A stretch of DNA of 64,000 bases from positions 38,949 through 102,948 of the IMG/VR virus record IMGVR_UViG_3300017739_000004; one strand, written 5' to 3'. The notes below the pieces were generated by a model. That model made no database searches, was not told the DNA's origin, and saw only the letters and a list, made by a program, of their open reading frames with translations. The stretch comes from a virus. Position 1 is the first letter of the stretch, and every line of letters begins with the position of its first letter. Shown piece by piece: positions 1,375-40,100 of this stretch. Made by a program: the position numbers and the translations under genes.

Positions 1375-1382
1375 TATAAATA
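1375..1382 (+). promoter_or_regulatory. T4-type late promoter in front of the curli cluster
   Basis: Intergenic TATAAATA. Confidence 0.75.
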
Positions 1383-1406
1383 GATTATATAATAATTAAT
1401 AATATT

Positions 1407-1703
1407 ATGGAAGACATATTTACTTTAATATCAGACGTGGGATTGCCAATCGCAGGAGCTTTGGTCATGGGTGTCTTTATATTCATAATTATAAAACAAA
1501 TAATGATGGGTATAGTAGATAATATCAGAACTCTTACTATGTTTTGCGAATCTTTAGAGAATCGTGCTAGAACTATGAGTAATGAAATGATTAAAATAGA
1601 TATGTTAGTTAGCAGTGCATTAGAGTTAAGACCAGATATCGATAGAGTAGCAAGAGCTGAAAATTTTATTGAAGATGGTAAACTTGATGTGAGGAGAGAT
1701 TAA
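1407..1703 (+). CDS. Single-TM plus coiled-coil membrane protein
   Basis: LISDVGLPIAGALVMGVFIFIII hydrophobic segment followed by a helical tail. Confidence 0.75.
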   Translation: MEDIFTLISDVGLPIAGALVMGVFIFIIIKQIMMGIVDNIRTLTMFCESLENRARTMSNEMIKIDMLVSSALELRPDIDRVARAENFIEDGKLDVRRD

Positions 1704-1999
1704 TGGATGTACAAATCACAGAAGCTGATTTTACTATTGTTTCTCTAATCACTGACTATGGCTTTCCAACTGTAATGGTAGTTGGGTTAGGATATTTTGT
1801 CTATTTCGTATGGCAATTTATTAATAATAATATCGAGCCAGAAATAGAAAAGATGCATTTCCAATTAATAAAAGTGATTGACCAAATGAGAATGTTGGAC
1901 CAAGATTTAATTAGGCTTCAACAAAAAGTAGATGTAGTTTTAGAATATAAAGAGAATGAAAAAAAGAAACGAGGAGAATTGGGAAAAGATGAAAAGTAA
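1703..1999 (+). CDS. Single-TM plus coiled-coil membrane protein, probable paralog of the upstream gene
   Basis: LITDYGFPTVMVVGLGYFVYFVW; same length (98 aa) and layout; TAATG overlap. Confidence 0.75.
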   Translation: MDVQITEADFTIVSLITDYGFPTVMVVGLGYFVYFVWQFINNNIEPEIEKMHFQLIKVIDQMRMLDQDLIRLQQKVDVVLEYKENEKKKRGELGKDEK

Positions 2000-2495
2000 T
2001 TTAGAAGTTGCTGGATTAATTGCTATATTTGGTTTATCTTTGTATGGCGTATCACCTGCAATGTCTGCAGATGAAATTGTACATAAGTTCAAAAATCCAT
2101 CATTTAGTGGAGTTGGTACAGGCGCACATTATCTTACAATAGAAAACCAGGAACATTCCAGAAAAAAAGCGATCGAAGATGCACTTGAAGCTGCAAAGAA
2201 TGCTGCTGAAAGAGAGGCAGAGAATTCAACTCTTGCAAAATTTATTAGAAACCTAGAGAGTAGAATATATGCTCAATTTGCTAAACAATTAGTTGAGTCA
2301 ATGTTCTCTAATGATAACCCTGCGGGGTTTGGTTCTTTTATTTTAGAAGGTAATATAATCACATGGGAAGTTGTCACAGATGAATCAGGTGCAGAGTTTA
2401 TTAGATTGACAGTTGTAAGTGAAGATGGAACAGAAACAGTAATTGAAATACCTGTAGGTACAGGAAACTTTGGACAAGACCCAGATAATGGTTAG
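1989..2495 (+). CDS. csgF: Curli assembly protein CsgF-like
   Basis: Signal peptide then EIVHKFKNPSFSG (CsgF NPxFxG motif); F..NLESRIYAQ; directly upstream of csgG; ATG 1989 preferred. Confidence 0.85.
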   Translation: MKSNLEVAGLIAIFGLSLYGVSPAMSADEIVHKFKNPSFSGVGTGAHYLTIENQEHSRKKAIEDALEAAKNAAEREAENSTLAKFIRNLESRIYAQFAKQLVESMFSNDNPAGFGSFILEGNIITWEVVTDESGAEFIRLTVVSEDGTETVIEIPVGTGNFGQDPDNG

Positions 2496-3420
2496 AGTAC
2501 TTTTAGCATCATTAATAATTTTAAGTGGTTGTGCTTCGATACCGAAGTGGTCGGACGATCCACAAGATTGTAAGATACCAAAGATTGTTGATGTAGTCAC
2601 GGCTGTACAAAAAGTTTTTGAAAGAAAATACATTTGTGTAGATATGCCAGAGGTTGTTAACTTACCTGCTTATATACAATTATTAGAATTACCACCACCA
2701 ACAATTGAAAAACCAGTTGTTGCAGTATATAGTTTTTTAGATAAAACGGGTCAAAGAAAAGCAAGAGAAGGTATAGCAGATTTCTCAACAGCTACGACTC
2801 AAGGTGGAGTAGAATTATTAGTAGACGCTCTAAAGACAGCCGGAGGTGGCACATGGTTTAGAGTTGTTGAAAGACAAGGCGTAGATCATCTAGTTAGAGA
2901 AAGACAGATTATCAGAAGCGCTAGACAAGAGTTTGCAGGTGATAATGGCCCGCAACCTTTAAACCCTTTATTATTCGCAGGAATGATTATAGAGGGTGGA
3001 ATAATTGGTTATGATACTAACATAATGACGGGAGGTCGGGGCGCACGAACTCTCGGTATTGGTTATGCGAAACAATATCGTAAAGATGTTGTGACTGTTT
3101 CGGTTAGAGCTGTTTCAGTTCTGACTGGTGAAGTATTATTAAACGTCCAAGCTCGTAAGACTATTTTATCTTATGGGTCAGGTGGTGATATCTTTCGTTT
3201 TATAGAGGAAGGTACTCAACTAGTAGAATATGAGGACGGTGTGGGAAATAATGAGTCGGTGACATATGCAACACGAGCAGCAATTGAAGCTGCGGTGTTG
3301 GAATTAATTTACCAAGGCCACGATCGTGGTTATTGGAATATAAGTGATGGGCATCGCCATCCACATCTTAATGATGGGGTAAACGATAAACATCAATTAG
3401 AGGAGTACGAAAATGAATAA
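2488..3420 (+). CDS. csgG: Curli secretion channel lipoprotein CsgG
   Basis: Lipobox LSGC from ATG 2488; VAVYSFLDKTGQRK, WFRVVERQG..LVRERQIIRS, EGGIIGYDTN, VLTGEVL. Confidence 0.92.
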   Translation: MVRVLLASLIILSGCASIPKWSDDPQDCKIPKIVDVVTAVQKVFERKYICVDMPEVVNLPAYIQLLELPPPTIEKPVVAVYSFLDKTGQRKAREGIADFSTATTQGGVELLVDALKTAGGGTWFRVVERQGVDHLVRERQIIRSARQEFAGDNGPQPLNPLLFAGMIIEGGIIGYDTNIMTGGRGARTLGIGYAKQYRKDVVTVSVRAVSVLTGEVLLNVQARKTILSYGSGGDIFRFIEEGTQLVEYEDGVGNNESVTYATRAAIEAAVLELIYQGHDRGYWNISDGHRHPHLNDGVNDKHQLEEYENE

Positions 3421-4150
3421 ACTTTTAAGTATAGCATTGCTATTGTCGACTACTTTTGTTTTCGCACAAGCCACTGATGATAACGAAATTAAGATCACAC
3501 AATCTGGTGATACCTTAAAATTATATGTAGACCAAATCGGTTTTGGAAACAAAATCGGCGGTGATGACGCTTCAGGCGGTTCACTATCTGCTATGACTAT
3601 TACAGGTAGTTCACTAGAGTTTGATTTAGATTTTACTGGTAATCAAAACGTTTTATTTGGACCAGTCGAAGCTGATAGTTCTTACTATAAGCTCGATTTT
3701 ACTGGTGATTCAAACAAAATAGATTGGAATATTGGTTATATCGGAAGTGCTGATGATTCAAACATTAACTTTGATGTGACAGGTGATTCTAACGAATTTG
3801 ACCTAGATCAAGGTTATGTTGCTAGTGCAGAAAGATTAGATGCTGATTTAATTTTAATTGGTAGTTCAAATATATTTGACATAGACTGGGAAAGTGATGA
3901 TAACGTTTGGGACTTTGATATTACAGGAGATTCAAACAATATTAACACATTACAAAATGACGGCGAACACAATCTTGAGTTCACTTTAGTAGGTGATTCA
4001 GCTGACGTCGACATTAATCAAATATCTGGTACATGTGCAAGTGGAGCAGGAACAAGTTGTGTTTCACCAAATGCAAATATTGTATTAGATGTGACTTCAG
4101 ACAATGCAATCATTCAACTTAATCAACAAGATTCGTCTAACGATTCTTAA
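3413..4150 (+). CDS. Secreted curlin-like beta-repeat protein
   Basis: GAGGAG SD; signal peptide; repeated xTGDSNx / QxG units; acidic; next to csgG. Confidence 0.7.
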   Translation: MNKLLSIALLLSTTFVFAQATDDNEIKITQSGDTLKLYVDQIGFGNKIGGDDASGGSLSAMTITGSSLEFDLDFTGNQNVLFGPVEADSSYYKLDFTGDSNKIDWNIGYIGSADDSNINFDVTGDSNEFDLDQGYVASAERLDADLILIGSSNIFDIDWESDDNVWDFDITGDSNNINTLQNDGEHNLEFTLVGDSADVDINQISGTCASGAGTSCVSPNANIVLDVTSDNAIIQLNQQDSSNDS

Positions 4151-5213
4151 TTTATTACTCATTAGTGGGTTTGCTTTTTCTAGCGAACCCATTGGTGGTA
4201 TTAAAGAATCTATTGGCTATGGTGGAATTACAAGAGATGATGAAACTTATAACCATGATGTCGGATTAGAAATTCAACTTAACGATCAAGCTGAAACAGC
4301 AAATGGTCGTATGCTTATAGAGTTCTTAGACGATGCAGAACTCCAACTCAAAGAACATTCAAGGGTTTTAATAGATACGGTTTATTACGATCCAAACCCA
4401 AACCTATCAAAAATGACTATGCGTATGGTCAGTGGAACAGCAAGATTTGCATCAGGTTCTAAGGGTTTAATTAATAAAGCAAACATAGAAATATCAACAC
4501 CAACCGCTACAATTGCTGTAAGGGGCACGGACTTCACCACAACAATAGATGAAATTGGACGAAGCCTTGTTATCTTATTACCTGACGATAAGGGAGAACC
4601 TTCAGGTGTTATTGAAGTCACCAGTTTAGGTGGAACAGTTGTATTAGATGAAGCTTATGCAGCCACAATGGTGTCATCTTATGATTTACCACCAACAACA
4701 GAAACCGTAATTCAAGGTATAACACCTGCACTGATTGATAATATGTTTATTGTGAATCCACCAGAGGAGGTGAAAGAGGCAGTAGAAGAACAATTAGCCG
4801 ATGAACAAAACGAAGATCAAGGAATATTAGATATAGATTTATTAGACTTTACTGAATTAGAAGAAGATGAACTAGAAGAAGATGACTTAGGTGAGTTTAA
4901 TGAATTAGATATTGATGAATTAGATGTAGAGTTTTTAATAGATGTTTTAGACATTGTAGATTCTGGTGATCTATTTGATACATTAGGTGAGTTTGATATT
5001 CAAGGCGCAACAAGAGGATTTAATGATGAATCACAATATAATGTCTTTTTAAGAAATGGTGATTTAGTATTTTATAGAAATGTAAATGGTGTAATAGAAT
5101 TACAATTCGAAGCTGGAGGTAGCTTTACCTTAGACACAGATACTCCAACATGGTCAGGTATAATTACTGGTAATGATGGAGAAGATATAATAGTAAGGAT
5201 TAGACAGTTATAA
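4104..5213 (+). CDS. Exported FecR-domain protein with an acidic C-terminal region
   Basis: Signal-like N-terminus; ETANGRMLIEFLD, ISTPTATIAVRGTDF (FecR-family pattern). Confidence 0.8.
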   Translation: MQSFNLINKIRLTILNLLLISGFAFSSEPIGGIKESIGYGGITRDDETYNHDVGLEIQLNDQAETANGRMLIEFLDDAELQLKEHSRVLIDTVYYDPNPNLSKMTMRMVSGTARFASGSKGLINKANIEISTPTATIAVRGTDFTTTIDEIGRSLVILLPDDKGEPSGVIEVTSLGGTVVLDEAYAATMVSSYDLPPTTETVIQGITPALIDNMFIVNPPEEVKEAVEEQLADEQNEDQGILDIDLLDFTELEEDELEEDDLGEFNELDIDELDVEFLIDVLDIVDSGDLFDTLGEFDIQGATRGFNDESQYNVFLRNGDLVFYRNVNGVIELQFEAGGSFTLDTDTPTWSGIITGNDGEDIIVRIRQL

Positions 5214-5216
5214 ATA
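5209..5216 (+). promoter_or_regulatory. T4-type late promoter
   Basis: TATAAATA 5 nt before ATG 5222. Confidence 0.65.
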
Positions 5217-5221
5217 AAACT

Positions 5222-5899
5222 ATGAATAAGAACTTCCATTACAATTTCGTACCACTATTAACAACTATGTTTATGTTTCTTGCATTTGATTTAGTTGCTG
5301 GTCCTACAGACGATAATCATATTCACGTCGAACAAGTAGCTGATGGTGATAATATAGAATTAAATATATCTCAAATAGGTTTTGCAAATAGCATAGAATT
5401 TTCATTTGCGCATTCAGGTAATGTATTTAATCTTCAACAAAATGGTAATGGTAATAGCATATCATGGGTGTCATATTGGGGCTCAGGTAAATCATGGGGT
5501 GGAGATGTTGATGGTTCTAATAACACAGAAAATATAATTCAGTATGATGGTGCAACTTATGGTAGACATATATGGGGTGATGAAAATATTGTAGATGTTT
5601 ATCAACATGGAAATCATACACACAATTTAGACATTCACGTTGATGATGTCGAACATGACTCATGGCAAGATGGTGCTGGGTCGCATTATAGTCATGTATA
5701 TTATTATGGTAATTCAGATGGTTCAATAACTAATCTTAAACAAGAAGGTACAGGAAATCATAATGCACAAGTAGTTTTATATGGAAATTATTTAACAACA
5801 CTTAATGTTTTACAACAAGGGTCAAATAATCAGTCATATAATTTAACACAAAATTGTCAAACAGTAGGTGGATGCACAGTTAACGTCACACAAGATTAA
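5222..5899 (+). CDS. Second curlin-like repeat protein (His/Asn/Gln-rich)
   Basis: Signal peptide; repeats QNGNGN, QHGNH, QEGTGNHNA, QQGSNNQ; N-terminus and C-terminal Cys pair resemble the 3413 protein. Confidence 0.72.
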   Translation: MNKNFHYNFVPLLTTMFMFLAFDLVAGPTDDNHIHVEQVADGDNIELNISQIGFANSIEFSFAHSGNVFNLQQNGNGNSISWVSYWGSGKSWGGDVDGSNNTENIIQYDGATYGRHIWGDENIVDVYQHGNHTHNLDIHVDDVEHDSWQDGAGSHYSHVYYYGNSDGSITNLKQEGTGNHNAQVVLYGNYLTTLNVLQQGSNNQSYNLTQNCQTVGGCTVNVTQD

Positions 5900-7737
5900 T
5901 GAAATATATTACTTCGGTATGGTCTACATTATTACTCGTATCAGCTCTGATATTAATAAGAGTTTATGATCCAGCAATAGTCGAGCAAGTCAGGCTCAAT
6001 ACATTCGATCAATACATCAAAACACTTCCAAAAGAAAAATCAAATGATATAGTACTTGTTAATATCGGTGAGAAATCACTTGGTAAGATTGGTCAATTTC
6101 CATGGCCTAGACAAGAATACGCACAAATGATTTCTGACCTAAGAAATATTAATGCTGGCTATATTGGATTTACTATAATGTTTCCAGAACCAGATAGATT
6201 TGGTGGTGACGATATATTTGCTCAATACATACAAGACAATGGGATTATCTTATCACAAGACGCAGATAACAATGGAAGGGCCGACAGTGCACCGTATGTA
6301 GGGCATGCACTATTTGGTACATCAGACCCTTTAGATTTTATATACAAATATAATGGTATAGTTGCTAATATTAAGAATTTAGAACAAGAGGCATGGGGTA
6401 TAGGATTAATAAATGCATCACCTGAAGTAGATAATATCACTAGAAGAATACCACTTATGACAAATGTAAAAGATGAAATCTATCCATCTTTTGCTTTAGA
6501 ATTAACTAGATTAAATATGGATCAGTTATCTTATACTATAAAATCAAATGAAGCAGGTATAGAAAGTGTAGTAGTTAGACCTTTTGAAATACCTACAGAT
6601 AGTGATGGTTCAATATGGTTAAAATGGAATACAGAATTTGAAGAAATAGAATACGAAAGGCTAATGCCAGGGTATGATAATTTAGAAGGTAAGACTGTTA
6701 TAGTCGGTGTATCAGCCAGTGGATTAGGTGCTCAGATTCCTACTCCTGGTGGTTTGATGAATCCAAACCAGCTTCAAGCCGCAGCTCTTCAAACAATTCT
6801 GTCAGACAATCCGATTTCTCGTCCTCTATGGGCTGATTCAATAGAAATTCTTGTAAGTGGAATTCTGGCTCTGTTGTTAATTCTGTTGATATATCGCGCA
6901 CCGATTTGGGCTTCAGGACTCGGCTTCGTTGTTCTTTGTGTTGGACAAGCCGGATTGACTTTTTATATCTGGAATAAATTTTATATACTCCTCGATCTTA
7001 GTTATTCACTAATATTATATATAATATCTTTTGCTTCAACGAGTTTTAATAACTTCTATAAACAATTTGCTCTTAGACAACAGATAAAGAAACAATTTGA
7101 AACATATTTGGATCCAAGACAAGTGGCTCTATTACAAAAAGACCCAAGCAGATTAAAGCTTGGTGGTGAAAGAAAAGAAATGACTTTCTTGTTTATGGAT
7201 ATAGTAGGATTTACTCCTATATCAGAACATTATAAAAATAATAATGACCCAGAAGGGTTAGTAGAAATTATAAATAATTATTTAAACCGTATGACCAATA
7301 TTATCTTAGACAATGGTGGTACTATTGACAAATATATGGGTGATTGTATAATGGCCTTTTGGAATGCTCCATTAGACTGTGAAGATCATGCATACCTAGC
7401 TACTAAAACAGCTATGGAAATTGAGAGAGCAGCAGATGAACTTATTAAAGAACTTGAAGATAAAGGCTTACCACGTATTGATGTTGGTATTGGTATTAAT
7501 TCCGGGACTTGCATCGTCGGAAACATGGGATCCGAAACTAGATTTGACTATTCCGTCATTGGAGATGCCGTCAACTTGGCAGCTAGACTCGAAGGCCAAA
7601 CACGCAATTACGATGGGGTTCGAGTGTTGTTGGGCGAACAAACATATAAAAGCTGTTCATCTGGAGAATTCACTGAAGTCGATAGAATCAAAGTTAAAGG
7701 TAAATCCGAACAGGTTAGAATATATACCCCAATTTGA
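5899..7737 (+). CDS. CHASE2-domain class III adenylate cyclase
   Basis: IVLVNIGEKSL..GQFPWPR (CHASE2); three TM helices; FMDIVGFT, IDKYMGD, FDYSVIGDAVNLAARLE catalytic motifs. Confidence 0.93.
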   Translation: MKYITSVWSTLLLVSALILIRVYDPAIVEQVRLNTFDQYIKTLPKEKSNDIVLVNIGEKSLGKIGQFPWPRQEYAQMISDLRNINAGYIGFTIMFPEPDRFGGDDIFAQYIQDNGIILSQDADNNGRADSAPYVGHALFGTSDPLDFIYKYNGIVANIKNLEQEAWGIGLINASPEVDNITRRIPLMTNVKDEIYPSFALELTRLNMDQLSYTIKSNEAGIESVVVRPFEIPTDSDGSIWLKWNTEFEEIEYERLMPGYDNLEGKTVIVGVSASGLGAQIPTPGGLMNPNQLQAAALQTILSDNPISRPLWADSIEILVSGILALLLILLIYRAPIWASGLGFVVLCVGQAGLTFYIWNKFYILLDLSYSLILYIISFASTSFNNFYKQFALRQQIKKQFETYLDPRQVALLQKDPSRLKLGGERKEMTFLFMDIVGFTPISEHYKNNNDPEGLVEIINNYLNRMTNIILDNGGTIDKYMGDCIMAFWNAPLDCEDHAYLATKTAMEIERAADELIKELEDKGLPRIDVGIGINSGTCIVGNMGSETRFDYSVIGDAVNLAARLEGQTRNYDGVRVLLGEQTYKSCSSGEFTEVDRIKVKGKSEQVRIYTPI

Positions 7738-8068
7738 TTTCATAGAACCAGCACATTGGACATCATACGCAGTATCTTTTGCATTACAATATGCCGATAT
7801 TCATTATACTAATAAAGCTTTACAATATCAATGTGTACGTGAGCTTAATCCTTTAGTTGGTAAAAGACCATCATGGAATCATTTAGTAGCTCACAAGGTA
7901 ATTACATTGTGGCCTGTGTATCACCCAGACTTTAATAAGTATCCAATCACTGATAAAGACTTAAATCAAGTTAATGTGTTTATGGCCATTGTTGTATTAC
8001 ATAATAAAAGAGTGCTTGAAAAAGTGCAAAGACACCCAGATATCTGTCCTAAGATTTCTACTATTTAA
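7421..8068 (+). CDS. Hypothetical exported/membrane protein overlapping the cyclase 3' end (start uncertain)
   Basis: Open frame fills 7738-8068; plausible Met starts lie inside the cyclase gene; signal-like MLVLVLIPGLASS. Confidence 0.55.
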   Translation: MREQQMNLLKNLKIKAYHVLMLVLVLIPGLASSETWDPKLDLTIPSLEMPSTWQLDSKAKHAITMGFECCWANKHIKAVHLENSLKSIESKLKVNPNRLEYIPQFDFIEPAHWTSYAVSFALQYADIHYTNKALQYQCVRELNPLVGKRPSWNHLVAHKVITLWPVYHPDFNKYPITDKDLNQVNVFMAIVVLHNKRVLEKVQRHPDICPKISTI

Positions 8069-37122: not shown

Positions 37123-40100
37123 ATGGCAATAGATAAAGAAACAAGAATATTAAAAAGTAATACCATTGAGCAATTTAGACAAAAGGCCAATGAGGTATCT
37201 TTACACTTAGGCGATACAGACCAATTAAATAGTTTAATTGCAGATAATGTATTTGACTATTCAAATGTTTCTGTAGGTACAGATTTAGTACAAGGTAGTG
37301 ATGATAATTCACTCATACAAAAATTTAATATAAAACCAGATGAAAGTTTAGATAATACTGGTGGTTATATTATTCTCAAAGGAAGTCCAACAATACCATC
37401 AAGTTTTGTTGCAGATGCTGTTGTCACACAATCAGGTGGATTCTCAGCAACTATTGTTAGTGTTTCAACATCAAAAATTCTTGTTAAAAATAGTTCAGGT
37501 ACATTTAATGCTGCACAAAATCTAGTAATAGGTTCAGACAATATAGCCAATTCAGCAGTCGTTAGATTAATTACAGAATCATATAATGTTGGTAATATTA
37601 GAGTATTTAAAAATGGTACTGAATTACCACAAGACTTATCAGCTACAGGTTTCCACGTTCCAGCTTTATCTGGTGTCATTACTTTACAAAATAATCCAGC
37701 ACTAGCAGGTTATGAAGAAGGTACAACAATTTCACAATCAGGTGGATTTAGTGCGACAGTTCTAAAGGCCACTTCAACAGCATTATTCTTAAAAGTACAA
37801 TCAGGTACATATTCAGTTAGTCAAAATATTACTGGTGGTGATGCCGCTATTATAGCAGCTAATCATACAGGTATATCAAGTAAAGACATTGCATTCGGAA
37901 ATGCCATCGAACTCAATACAATTACTGCAAATGCAACTGATGATATCCAAATTAAAGCCACAAGTACAGTACAAGCTTTAAACGAATTACAAGATGACAT
38001 CGGTAATATTGCTAACTTAGGTACAACCTCTGCAGGTGATTTAGTAGTTAGTATTAATGAATTAGAAACAGGGCTGAGAGGTACTTTAGGAAATTATACA
38101 GTATCTACAACTCAAGCTGGCCATGGTGTGGTCGGTGCAGTAAATGAATTACATACTGATATCGGAACAGCTAGTTTTACAAATGATCTTCCAAGTCATG
38201 CGACTTATAATACTGGTTCGCAAAACTTAACTGGTCAAATAGAAAATATTGCAACCTTTATTGGTGACACAGCAATTAATAATATTCATGGAAGTACACA
38301 TACTATTACACAAACTATTTCTAAACTACATACAGAAATAGGAAATATGACATTGACTGGATTAAGTGCAACAACTTTATCCGGTGCGGCAAGAGAACTC
38401 AGAACAGAATTAGGTGATGTCACTGCATTAAATACATCAGTCACAAGTAATGTGGTTGGTGCAATCAATGAGATTGAAGGTGTATTCGATGCATCAGCAA
38501 GAACAATTACTACATCCGGTGACTTGACAATTGATTCATCTGGTGATATAATATTGGATGCAGATGGTGGTGATATATTACTTAAAGATGCTGGGAATAG
38601 TTTTGGTAAATTTACTAATAGTTCTGGTAGTTTGCATATAGTATCTCAAGGTTCAGACAACGATATTAACTTCTTTGGTAATGATGGTGGCTCAAGTGTG
38701 ACTGCTCTCACCCTTGATATGTCAGATGCTGGTACAGCAATCTTTAATCACGATATTAAATTACCTGATAGTGGTCAAGCAATTTTTGGTGCAGGCTCTG
38801 ATTTAAAAATTTATCACGATGGTTCTAATAGTTATATAAATGATGCTGGTACTGGATATTTAGTAATTCAATCAAACGGACCGGGTATTCGTTTAAATAG
38901 TTCTGCAGCAGAAATAATGATTGATGCAACTCCTGATGGTGCTGTAACACTTTATCATAATAATATAGCAAAACTAGCCACTAAAGCAGATGGTGTAGAT
39001 ATTACAGGTGAATTACAATCAGATTCATTAGACGTAGATGGTGTTGGAGATATATCTGGTAATCTTACAGTTCACGGTGTCTTAGATATAGGAACACTCA
39101 GTACACAATTTAGTGTATCAAATAGAAATGATGTAAAACTTGCTTTAAATGAATTGCATTCAGAATTAGGTAATGCTGTAATAACAGGAACAAATACCGC
39201 AGCTGCAGGTTTAACTAATCTTACATCAGCCATAAATGCAATCGATGCAGAAATTGGTGTCACAAATACAATATTAAATAGTGTTGGTACTCATGGTGGT
39301 ACAACTGTTGCAGGTGTATTAGGAAATCTAAGTACAGCAATAGTAAATAATGATACAGATATATCTACCCTTCAAGGAAGAGATATAATTGCAGGAACTG
39401 GTTTAACTGGTGGTGGAACATTAGCTGAAGATAGAACATTAAATGTCATTGGTGGTGATGGTATCACTGCTAATGCAAATGACGTTGCAGTAGATGCTAC
39501 AGTTCTAAGAACAACAAGTACAAATGTTGTAAGAACAGATGCAAATAGAAATATTGTCAGTGGAACCACTGTCACATTTGATTCTGGTTCATCATTAATA
39601 ATTAATGGTACATTGACATTAGCTGGTTCTGCATCAGGTGTATCTACATTTGGTGTAAACTTTGTTGAGGTTGATGGTTCTGGAAATCAGCAAGGTCTAC
39701 AGGTACAAAATAGTTTTTCAGGATATAGTGTAGACCCTAGAGTTCAATGGAATCATACAAGAGTCAGTGCAGCCCCAACAAGAGCATGGCAATTAGTTGG
39801 TCTTGCAGCTGATGGAAGTACAGCAGATACTACAGACATAGTCACATATACAAACTTTGGTGATCTTGCAGATGGTACTCATTTAGAAAAGAGTGGTACA
39901 TCTCTTAGAATAAAAGATAGTGGTGTCACAACAGATAAAATTGCAAATTTAAATGTCACAACAGGTAAAGTTGCTGCTAGTGCGATTACATTTGCTAAAA
40001 TGCAAAACATATCACAGAATAGATTATTAGGAAGAACTGCTGCAGGTTCTGGTAATATAACAGAAGTTCAAATACAAACAGGTATGATTGCAGCAGATGC

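Follow-up and report, generated by a model that had tools for sequence, protein, structure and literature searches.

A curli-type secretion block joined to a FecR-domain protein and a CHASE2 adenylate cyclase in a marine T4-like phage

The window analysed here is a stretch of 64,000 nucleotides (positions 38,949 to 102,948) of the IMG/VR virus record IMGVR_UViG_3300017739_000004. The record comprises 102,948 bases, is estimated to be 61% complete and derives from an uncultured marine T4-like phage, whose nearest cultured relatives are the T4-like Pelagibacter phage HTVC008M and the Methylophilales phage Melnitz. At positions 1375–7737 the window contains a real and intact module of eight genes, all on the plus strand, which form a single dense operon in the order tm1, tm2, CsgF, CsgG, curlin-like protein 1, FecR-domain protein, curlin-like protein 2 and CHASE2 adenylate cyclase. 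Domain identities, the integrity of the catalytic residues, fold class, synteny, linkage and bacterial parentage were computed directly. Judging from homology and gene neighbourhoods, the block is a phage-specific chimera of two alphaproteobacterial cassettes, one for curli-type secretion and one for cyclic AMP (cAMP) signalling. There seems to be about an even chance that it works as a trans-envelope sensor, in which the FecR-domain protein links a surface element made of CsgG, CsgF and curlin to the CHASE2 cyclase.

The initial annotation of this DNA had described a tightly packed, mostly overlapping run of eight genes, and this run was confirmed, the junctions being overlaps of 1–47 nt or an 8-nt gap. 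Its list of parts and their assignment to membrane tiers also hold up. The module had been presented as new, and in this respect the annotation was wrong, because the window block is a further copy of the published pelagiphage “viral curli” region and its gene content is already known. Wittmers et al. 2022 (PMC9599517) described the whole cluster, with FecR and cyclase, in podovirus and myovirus pelagiphages, in the order one or two “histidine kinases”, CsgF, CsgG, CsgA/B, FecR, a second CsgA/B and adenylate cyclase. The same authors traced the cluster to Alphaproteobacteria and reported that it has passed between virus families and is expressed in metatranscriptomes. Only CsgF and CsgG are treated by Zaragoza-Solas et al. 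2020 (PMC7029224) and by Buchholz et al. 2022 (PMC9004378).

The published region of the two cultured phages (HTVC008M gp011–gp019, Melnitz genes 97–104) includes the same eight genes in identical order, and the window copy is no different in kind. The identities of the HTVC008M and Melnitz proteins to those of the window are 44% and 36% for the cyclase, 46% and 42% for CsgG, and 33% and 33% for the FecR-domain protein. The present reading departs from the published ones in the interpretation of the parts. The small proteins tm1 and tm2 have no histidine-kinase domain, the sensor of the cyclase is assigned to CHASE2, and the FecR-domain protein is read as a partner of CHASE2 similar to NsrA of Sinorhizobium meliloti, not as an iron regulator. 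CHASE2 and NsrA are not mentioned by Wittmers et al. (PMC9599517). Buchholz et al. (PMC9004378) took csgA/B to be missing, whereas both fibre genes are present in the block.

Components of the block

The last gene of the block (5899..7737) encodes a protein of 612 aa predicted to be a CHASE2 receptor adenylate cyclase (PF05226, E 1e-43; PF00211, E 7e-21). The predicted topology includes TM1 at residues 4–22, a periplasmic CHASE2 domain, membrane helices from residue 314 (hydrophobic segment 314–332) and a cytoplasmic catalytic domain at residues 426–605. By its sequence, therefore, the protein has a CHASE2 domain between membrane helices and a class III catalytic domain with intact residues. 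Alignment to solved cyclases located both metal-binding aspartates (D434 and D482), the adenine-selecting lysine K478 and the Asn/Arg pair N559/R563, as the initial annotation had it. K478 occupies the place of a Lys in CyaB (3r5g), where the guanylate cyclase Cya2 (2w01) has a Glu. At the second specificity position the phage protein has Ser552, matched by Thr in Pseudomonas aeruginosa CyaB and by Ser in S. meliloti CyaK; the specificity pair is therefore Lys478/Ser552, and the earlier assignment of a Lys/Asp pair has to be corrected. D434, K478, D482, S552, N559 and R563 are invariant in 35 aligned sequences (the window protein and 34 phage homologues). Judged by these residues, the cyclase belongs to class IIIb, of the Lys/Thr(Ser) type.

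The 3′ end of the cyclase gene also contains a perfect sigma-70 consensus (TTGACA, 16 nt, TATAAT; window 7325–7352). It is followed by an open reading frame (ORF) at 7436–8068, which lies in another frame, overlaps the cyclase gene by about 300 nt and encodes a signal-like hydrophobic N-terminus. A tblastn search found this ORF at the equivalent position in the related loci L004, L006, L008 and L046–L049, and the Pfam search gave only a weak match to DUF2670.

The FecR-domain protein (4104..5213; 369 aa; PF04773, E 1.2e-9; phrog_37870) appears to be exported. It is composed of a signal peptide, a FecR region at about residues 30–215, an acidic segment at residues 220–296, with 34 Asp/Glu per 77 residues, and a variable C-terminal domain. 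Pfam searches detected neither a TPR nor a barrel domain in it, and its C-terminal part gave no usable match in the protein atlas. The gene is located one gene away from the cyclase, with curlin 2 between them. The only hydrophobic stretch is the N-terminal one of the signal type, no internal hydrophobic segment was found, and the block contains no FecI or FecA partner genes. Given a signal peptide of the cleavable type and the lack of any internal hydrophobic segment, the phage protein is not a FecR-type anti-sigma factor.

The secretion part of the block is represented by CsgG and CsgF. The CsgG gene (2470..3420, with a likely ATG at 2488) encodes a predicted outer-membrane lipoprotein channel (PF03783, E 3.7e-49), 38% identical to Escherichia coli CsgG over 284 aa (E 3e-54), with the lipobox L-S-G-C aligned. 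The CsgF homologue (1956..2495; phrog_35372) matches PF10614 with an E-value of 1.2e-11, a match that passes the cut-off. Read from the likely ATG at 1989, it begins with a signal peptide followed by a K-N-P-S-F-S-G motif; a pairwise BLASTP comparison of phage CsgF with E. coli CsgF was not significant. On this sequence evidence, the block encodes both a CsgG-family channel and a CsgF-type accessory protein of type VIII secretion. CsgE and CsgC/CsgH were not recognised: neither PF10627 nor PF10610 was matched in this record, HTVC008M or Melnitz, while the E. coli control was positive. This bears out the first reading of the DNA, and Wittmers et al. (PMC9599517) also described a layout like that of alphaproteobacterial loci, with CsgC, CsgD and CsgE absent.

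The two remaining exported proteins are candidate substrates of the channel. Curlin-repeat protein 1 (3413..4150) contains 245 aa, has a signal peptide, is acidic and is predicted to be a beta-solenoid, with a Curlin_rpt match at E 0.0032. Curlin-repeat protein 2 (5222..5899; 225 aa) also has a signal peptide and is rich in Gln, Asn and His; the comparison of profiles indicates that the two are paralogues (hhalign probability 99.5%, E 4e-23). The Pfam Curlin_rpt matches of the window's own two copies are below the cut-off or absent. The repeat was matched in 30 of 43 orthologues of curlin 1 (best E 1.5e-5) and in 21 of 39 orthologues of curlin 2 (best E 3.4e-9). The profile of curlin 2 matches E. 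coli CsgA at E 4.6e-5, and that of curlin 1 gives no significant match to it (2.6% probability).

AlphaFold models of both proteins (mean pLDDT 82 for curlin 1 and 76 for curlin 2) are strand-turn-strand solenoids. In an all-against-representatives fold search with these models, the top match of each was CsgA of Pontibacter korlensis (8c50), with Z 17.6, rmsd 9.0, 199 aligned residues and 22% identity for curlin 1, and Z 14.4, rmsd 9.2 and 181 aligned residues for curlin 2. Curlin 2 also matched the E. coli CsgA fibril with Z 11.1. With Foldseek, neither model had a PDB match at E <= 0.001. Taken together, the models and profiles suggest with moderate confidence that both repeat proteins are curlin-type substrates.

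Compared with the curli system of E. coli (CsgBAC/CsgDEFG), the phage block shares a homologous CsgG with an aligned lipobox, a CsgF of the same family and secreted curlin-repeat proteins that come closest in fold to a solved curli subunit. It differs in the absence of CsgE, CsgC and CsgD and in the presence of FecR, the cyclase and two small membrane proteins. Besides, the phage repeat proteins are longer (225–245 aa) and divergent, and curlin-like 1 is highly acidic.

Curlin 2 is the most variable gene of the block, and its orthologues range from 113 to 497 aa among complete loci. In the related loci L004–L243 they fall into length classes of about 115 aa, 213–314 aa and 430–497 aa, which is typical of a repeat protein gaining and losing units. 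The slot between curlin 2 and the cyclase is variable as well. One locus encodes there an additional protein of 1028 aa with no Pfam match (L073:6714-9800), similar insertions are present in L068 (L068:2-2242, at least 746 aa) and L075, and L176 and L242 contain 0.7–1.4 kb of additional DNA at this place.

The block is opened by two genes of small membrane proteins, tm1 (1407..1703; 98 aa; phrog_18771, E 2.6e-25) and its paralogue tm2 (1703..1999; 98 aa; phrog_18771, E 1.6e-24), the start of tm2 overlapping the stop of tm1 by 1 nt. Both are predicted to have an N-terminal membrane helix and a coiled-coil tail. In the bitopic tm1 the hydrophobic helix occupies residues 11–29, with the tail following it. 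Wittmers et al. (PMC9599517) labelled the small upstream proteins “histidine kinases”. This label was rejected, since each protein has merely 98 aa and neither contains a HisKA/DHp or HATPase domain: no kinase domain was matched in Pfam up to E 0.1, and none in NCBIfam. Comparison with the PDB gave only weak coiled-coil matches, the best of them to PspA/Vipp1 at E 0.0066. In a subset of phages (L166, L182 and L221–L228), tm2 and csgF are separated by about 0.7–1 kb of additional sequence.

The initial annotation had pointed to two copies of the T4-type late-promoter-like TATAAATA, at 1375 and 5209, and had supposed late expression of the module. Both copies are present on the plus strand, the first (1375..1382) 32 nt upstream of tm1 and the second (5209..5216) 5 nt before the ATG of curlin 2. 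The number of copies is not significantly enriched in the AT-rich window, where the 8-mer occurs 21 times (14.2 expected) and a count of 21 is attained in 5 of 100 shuffles. The positions were compared in related loci. In 40 of 76 distinct loci the motif precedes the first small membrane gene by no more than 100 nt, at stereotyped distances, and late expression of the whole operon is therefore supported. Before curlin 2 it is kept in merely 3 of 69 related loci, at other distances, so an internal late promoter at 5209 was rejected; this copy is probably not a conserved promoter.

Directly 5′ of the module, at 514–1369 of the window, there are genes of iron–sulphur (Fe-S) assembly proteins, NifU-like (PF01592, E 1.4e-39) and IscA-like (PF01521, E 7.9e-16).

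Linkage in phages and separation in bacteria

Relatives of the cyclase are encoded in 399 IMG/VR contigs and relatives of CsgG in 353. Synteny was assessed in 160 fetched phage loci, of which those with enough flanking DNA were taken as informative. All eight genes were found in the same order in every one of the 58 informative loci (24/24 anchored on the cyclase and 34/34 anchored on CsgG), tm1 among them, and 72 loci, 65 of them non-identical, were complete. Locus L068 was considered as a possible case of a cyclase lacking an upstream FecR gene and was rejected, since the unannotated ORF of at least 746 aa fills the available upstream DNA, as in L073, and makes the locus uninformative in this respect.

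Among 50,697 GenBank phage records, full-length matches of tm1, CsgG, FecR and the cyclase were confined to HTVC008M and Melnitz. The other matches were to the catalytic domain alone, in two Acinetobacter phage records, and to CsgG in a 1.5-kb record named “Salmonella phage S.Kent 1-2-1” (OR851715.1; 43% identity), which is probably host csgG DNA. The mean pairwise identity decreases from 0.70 for the catalytic domain of the cyclase to 0.59 for CsgG, 0.55 for the N-terminal part of FecR, 0.45 for CHASE2, 0.37 for curlin 2 and 0.35 for the C-terminal domain of FecR. The last two are the least conserved parts of the block.

The closest cellular relatives of the two halves are located apart from each other. 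The 80 closest cellular CHASE2 cyclases are mostly alphaproteobacterial, with about 32–40% identity. A FecR-like gene lies within 10 kb of the cyclase in 28 of these 80 loci, and in 11 it is directly upstream on the same strand. The bacterial FecR partners are proteins of 275–2098 aa with cadherin-like, RTX or other extensions. In eight loci a gene for a TPR/Slam-like outer-membrane barrel protein is divergent from the cyclase, and in five of them the FecR gene follows it in the same operon. Marine single-cell genomes also encode CHASE2 cyclases 34–36% identical to the phage one, in two SAR86 loci (L126 and L133) and in an alphaproteobacterial locus (L131); in L133 a Slam-like barrel gene adjoins the cyclase, and in L131 a FecR protein of 977 aa with RTX repeats is encoded 5.7 kb away. 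None of the 80 cyclase loci contains CsgG, CsgF, curlin or tm1/tm2 genes.

The closest bacterial CsgG proteins were found in 7 of 401 sampled alphaproteobacterial genomes (G035, G391, G161, G147, G024, G089 and G368), with E-values of 1e-64 to 1e-81 for the phage profile. In these loci csgF precedes csgG in 7/7 cases, as in the phage block, and the phage profiles detect up to three curlin-repeat genes in 6/7 (E down to 2e-21). No FecR, CHASE2 cyclase or tm1/tm2 gene was found within about 8–10 kb on either side of them, and a Slam-like profile built from the bacterial loci had no match there. The co-occurrence of csg genes with FecR and cyclase genes, which the initial annotation had proposed to check, is thus strict in phages, while in bacteria the halves assort independently, an outcome that the annotation itself had named as refuting its proposal. 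The separation of the halves in bacteria indicates that the phage block is a chimera of two cassettes and two phage-only genes.

The second cassette has a studied counterpart in S. meliloti. On pSymB, the start of cyaK is abutted by the gene of a 1190-aa protein that shows FecR and TPR signatures and, at its C-terminus, a barrel signature. Judging by size and architecture, and not by a locus tag, this protein would be NsrA, whose barrel portion is placed at aa 600–1200 in the published description. Outer-membrane NsrA is reported to be required for the response of the CHASE2 cyclase CyaK to extracellular protein (PMC7529298). The phage FecR profile aligns with the N-terminal region of the 1190-aa protein with hhalign probability of 90% and E 1.6e-6 over 172 columns. 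The phage cyclase is 42% identical to CyaK over 308 aa of the membrane and catalytic part.

The two systems therefore have in common a CHASE2 class III cyclase with the same Lys/Ser signature and homologous FecR regions, the bacterial FecR-domain gene lying immediately upstream of the cyclase. They differ in that the bacterial protein has its own TPR and beta-barrel, whereas the phage FecR protein has neither and is placed among CsgG, CsgF and curlin genes. In addition, the bacterial output proceeds through the Crp-type regulator Clr, and no such receiver was found in the phage.

FecR-domain proteins are encoded beside CHASE2 sensors in other bacteria too. The S. meliloti FecR-domain gene smc02177 and cyaD1 (smc02176) have consecutive locus tags. 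In the BiofilmReg system of Burkholderia (PMC5192318), a LysM-FecR protein and a CHASE2 histidine kinase are encoded in one operon, and a Campylobacterota cluster with a CHASE2 cyclase (PMC9239204) has the gene of an exported FecR-domain protein next to that of the sensor. The Burkholderia and Campylobacterota systems differ from the phage block in their outputs and in the accessory domains of FecR, and they have no CsgG-type pore. Together with the pSymB neighbourhood, these cases suggest that a FecR-domain periplasmic partner of CHASE2, often accompanied by an outer-membrane element, is a recurring design.

Trans-envelope signalling and competing readings

The first cassette of the block would be a minimal type VIII secretion set, composed of the CsgG channel, CsgF and two secreted curlin-repeat proteins of the beta-solenoid type. 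The second would be a pair of the NsrA/CyaK type, that is, an exported FecR-domain protein and a CHASE2 class IIIb cyclase. The phage-only genes tm1 and tm2 precede both cassettes, and the whole block is presumed to be transcribed as a single late operon. All its products would be exported, except for the catalytic domain of the cyclase. In the proposed mechanism, CsgG and CsgF would form an outer-membrane pore with the curlin-like proteins as its substrates, and the FecR-domain protein, located in the periplasm, would make the periplasmic CHASE2 domain responsive to the state of the pore, of the fibre or of the cell surface. This coupling would switch the synthesis of cAMP in the cytoplasm. 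The protein contacts, the signal and the role of cAMP in the infected cell are what we infer from this arrangement.

Since the phage FecR-domain protein lacks the TPR and barrel part by which bacterial NsrA is anchored in the outer membrane, CsgG and CsgF would have to supply the outer-membrane element. It may tentatively be suggested that a receptor of the NsrA type was rebuilt by non-orthologous replacement, the CsgG/CsgF pore and the curlin-like fibres assuming the role that the TPR/beta-barrel half plays in NsrA. An external event, such as contact, a second phage or a basic protein, would then be perceived by a fibre or pore at the surface of an infected cell of the SAR11 type and relayed via FecR to CHASE2, and cAMP would tune late infection.

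The sensor proposed in the initial annotation thus gains from the strict linkage in phages (58/58) and from the precedent of NsrA and CyaK. Several observations weigh against it. The two halves never co-occur locally in the bacteria sampled, and their coupling in phages could consist in the co-inheritance of two useful cassettes. In podoviruses, the copies of the region carry the cyclase and the second curlin “frequently”, not always (PMC9599517), and the existence of copies lacking the cyclase means that FecR has some role without it. No cyclic-nucleotide-monophosphate (cNMP)-binding protein (PF00027) was found in this record, which is 61% complete, or in HTVC008M or Melnitz. The S. meliloti FecR-domain gene smc02177 proved dispensable for signal perception (PMC5498481). 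Finally, the rmsd of the CsgA fold matches is high (about 9 Å), and generic beta-helices score just 2–3 Z units below them.

The strongest competitor of the sensor assumes two independent functions that are merely inherited together. The type VIII secretion part would produce surface fibres, which serve for aggregation (“sibling capture”) or for a block of superinfection, and FecR with the CHASE2 cyclase would reprogramme the host through cAMP. Such a division of labour is possible, though less probable than the sensor. It agrees with the bacterial loci, where the halves are never adjacent (0/80 and 0/7), and with the podovirus copies that can lack the cyclase (PMC9599517), and its fibre hypotheses are the published ones. 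The architecture of the block speaks against independence: the FecR gene lies between the two curlin genes, curlin 2 overlaps the start of the cyclase gene by 1 nt, and the linkage in myovirus-type loci is complete. Besides, the phage FecR protein has lost its own outer-membrane part, which the bacterial FecR partners often carry or adjoin, and cultures of Melnitz were described without clumping (PMC9004378).

A device for the timing of lysis, in which CsgG and CsgF act as a gated or pinholin-like channel that helps to trigger lysis, as proposed by Buchholz et al., with FecR and the cyclase as regulators, appears improbable. The late-promoter motif, the structural argument and the synteny in Melnitz (PMC9004378), and the absence of CsgE, the usual periplasmic gate, accord with it. 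CsgG, however, is an outer-membrane channel, whereas holin-type triggering acts on the inner membrane; the block contains two curlin-repeat substrates, thought to be missing in PMC9004378, and domain searches revealed no lysis genes in the operon.

Import or regulation related to iron, in which FecR would respond to ferric citrate or siderophores, on the model of E. coli FecIRA, while cofactors enter through the pore, is very unlikely and was rejected on architecture: the Pfam name of the domain, a suggestion in PMC9599517 and the Fe-S assembly genes just upstream (514–1369) favour it, but the protein has a signal peptide of the cleavable type and is devoid of internal hydrophobic segments, no FecI or FecA partner is encoded in the block, and in bacteria the related proteins accompany CHASE2 sensors and carry adhesin-like, RTX, TPR or barrel extensions. 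The ideas of a lysis pore and of iron sensing thus fit the anatomy of the block less well than either a trans-envelope sensor or two independent halves.

Beyond the published description of the block, the present analysis adds the strict linkage of its genes in phages, the separation of its halves in bacteria and the likeness to NsrA and CyaK. The block is abundant in ocean viromes and would provide its streamlined hosts, devoid of curli genes, with a wholly novel envelope structure while they are infected. The recognition of a CHASE2 sensor and of an NsrA/CyaK-like FecR-domain protein turns a vague annotation as a “regulator” into a specific hypothesis open to experimental test. The parallel between the phage FecR protein and NsrA may also suggest how CHASE2 sensors receive signals across the outer membrane.

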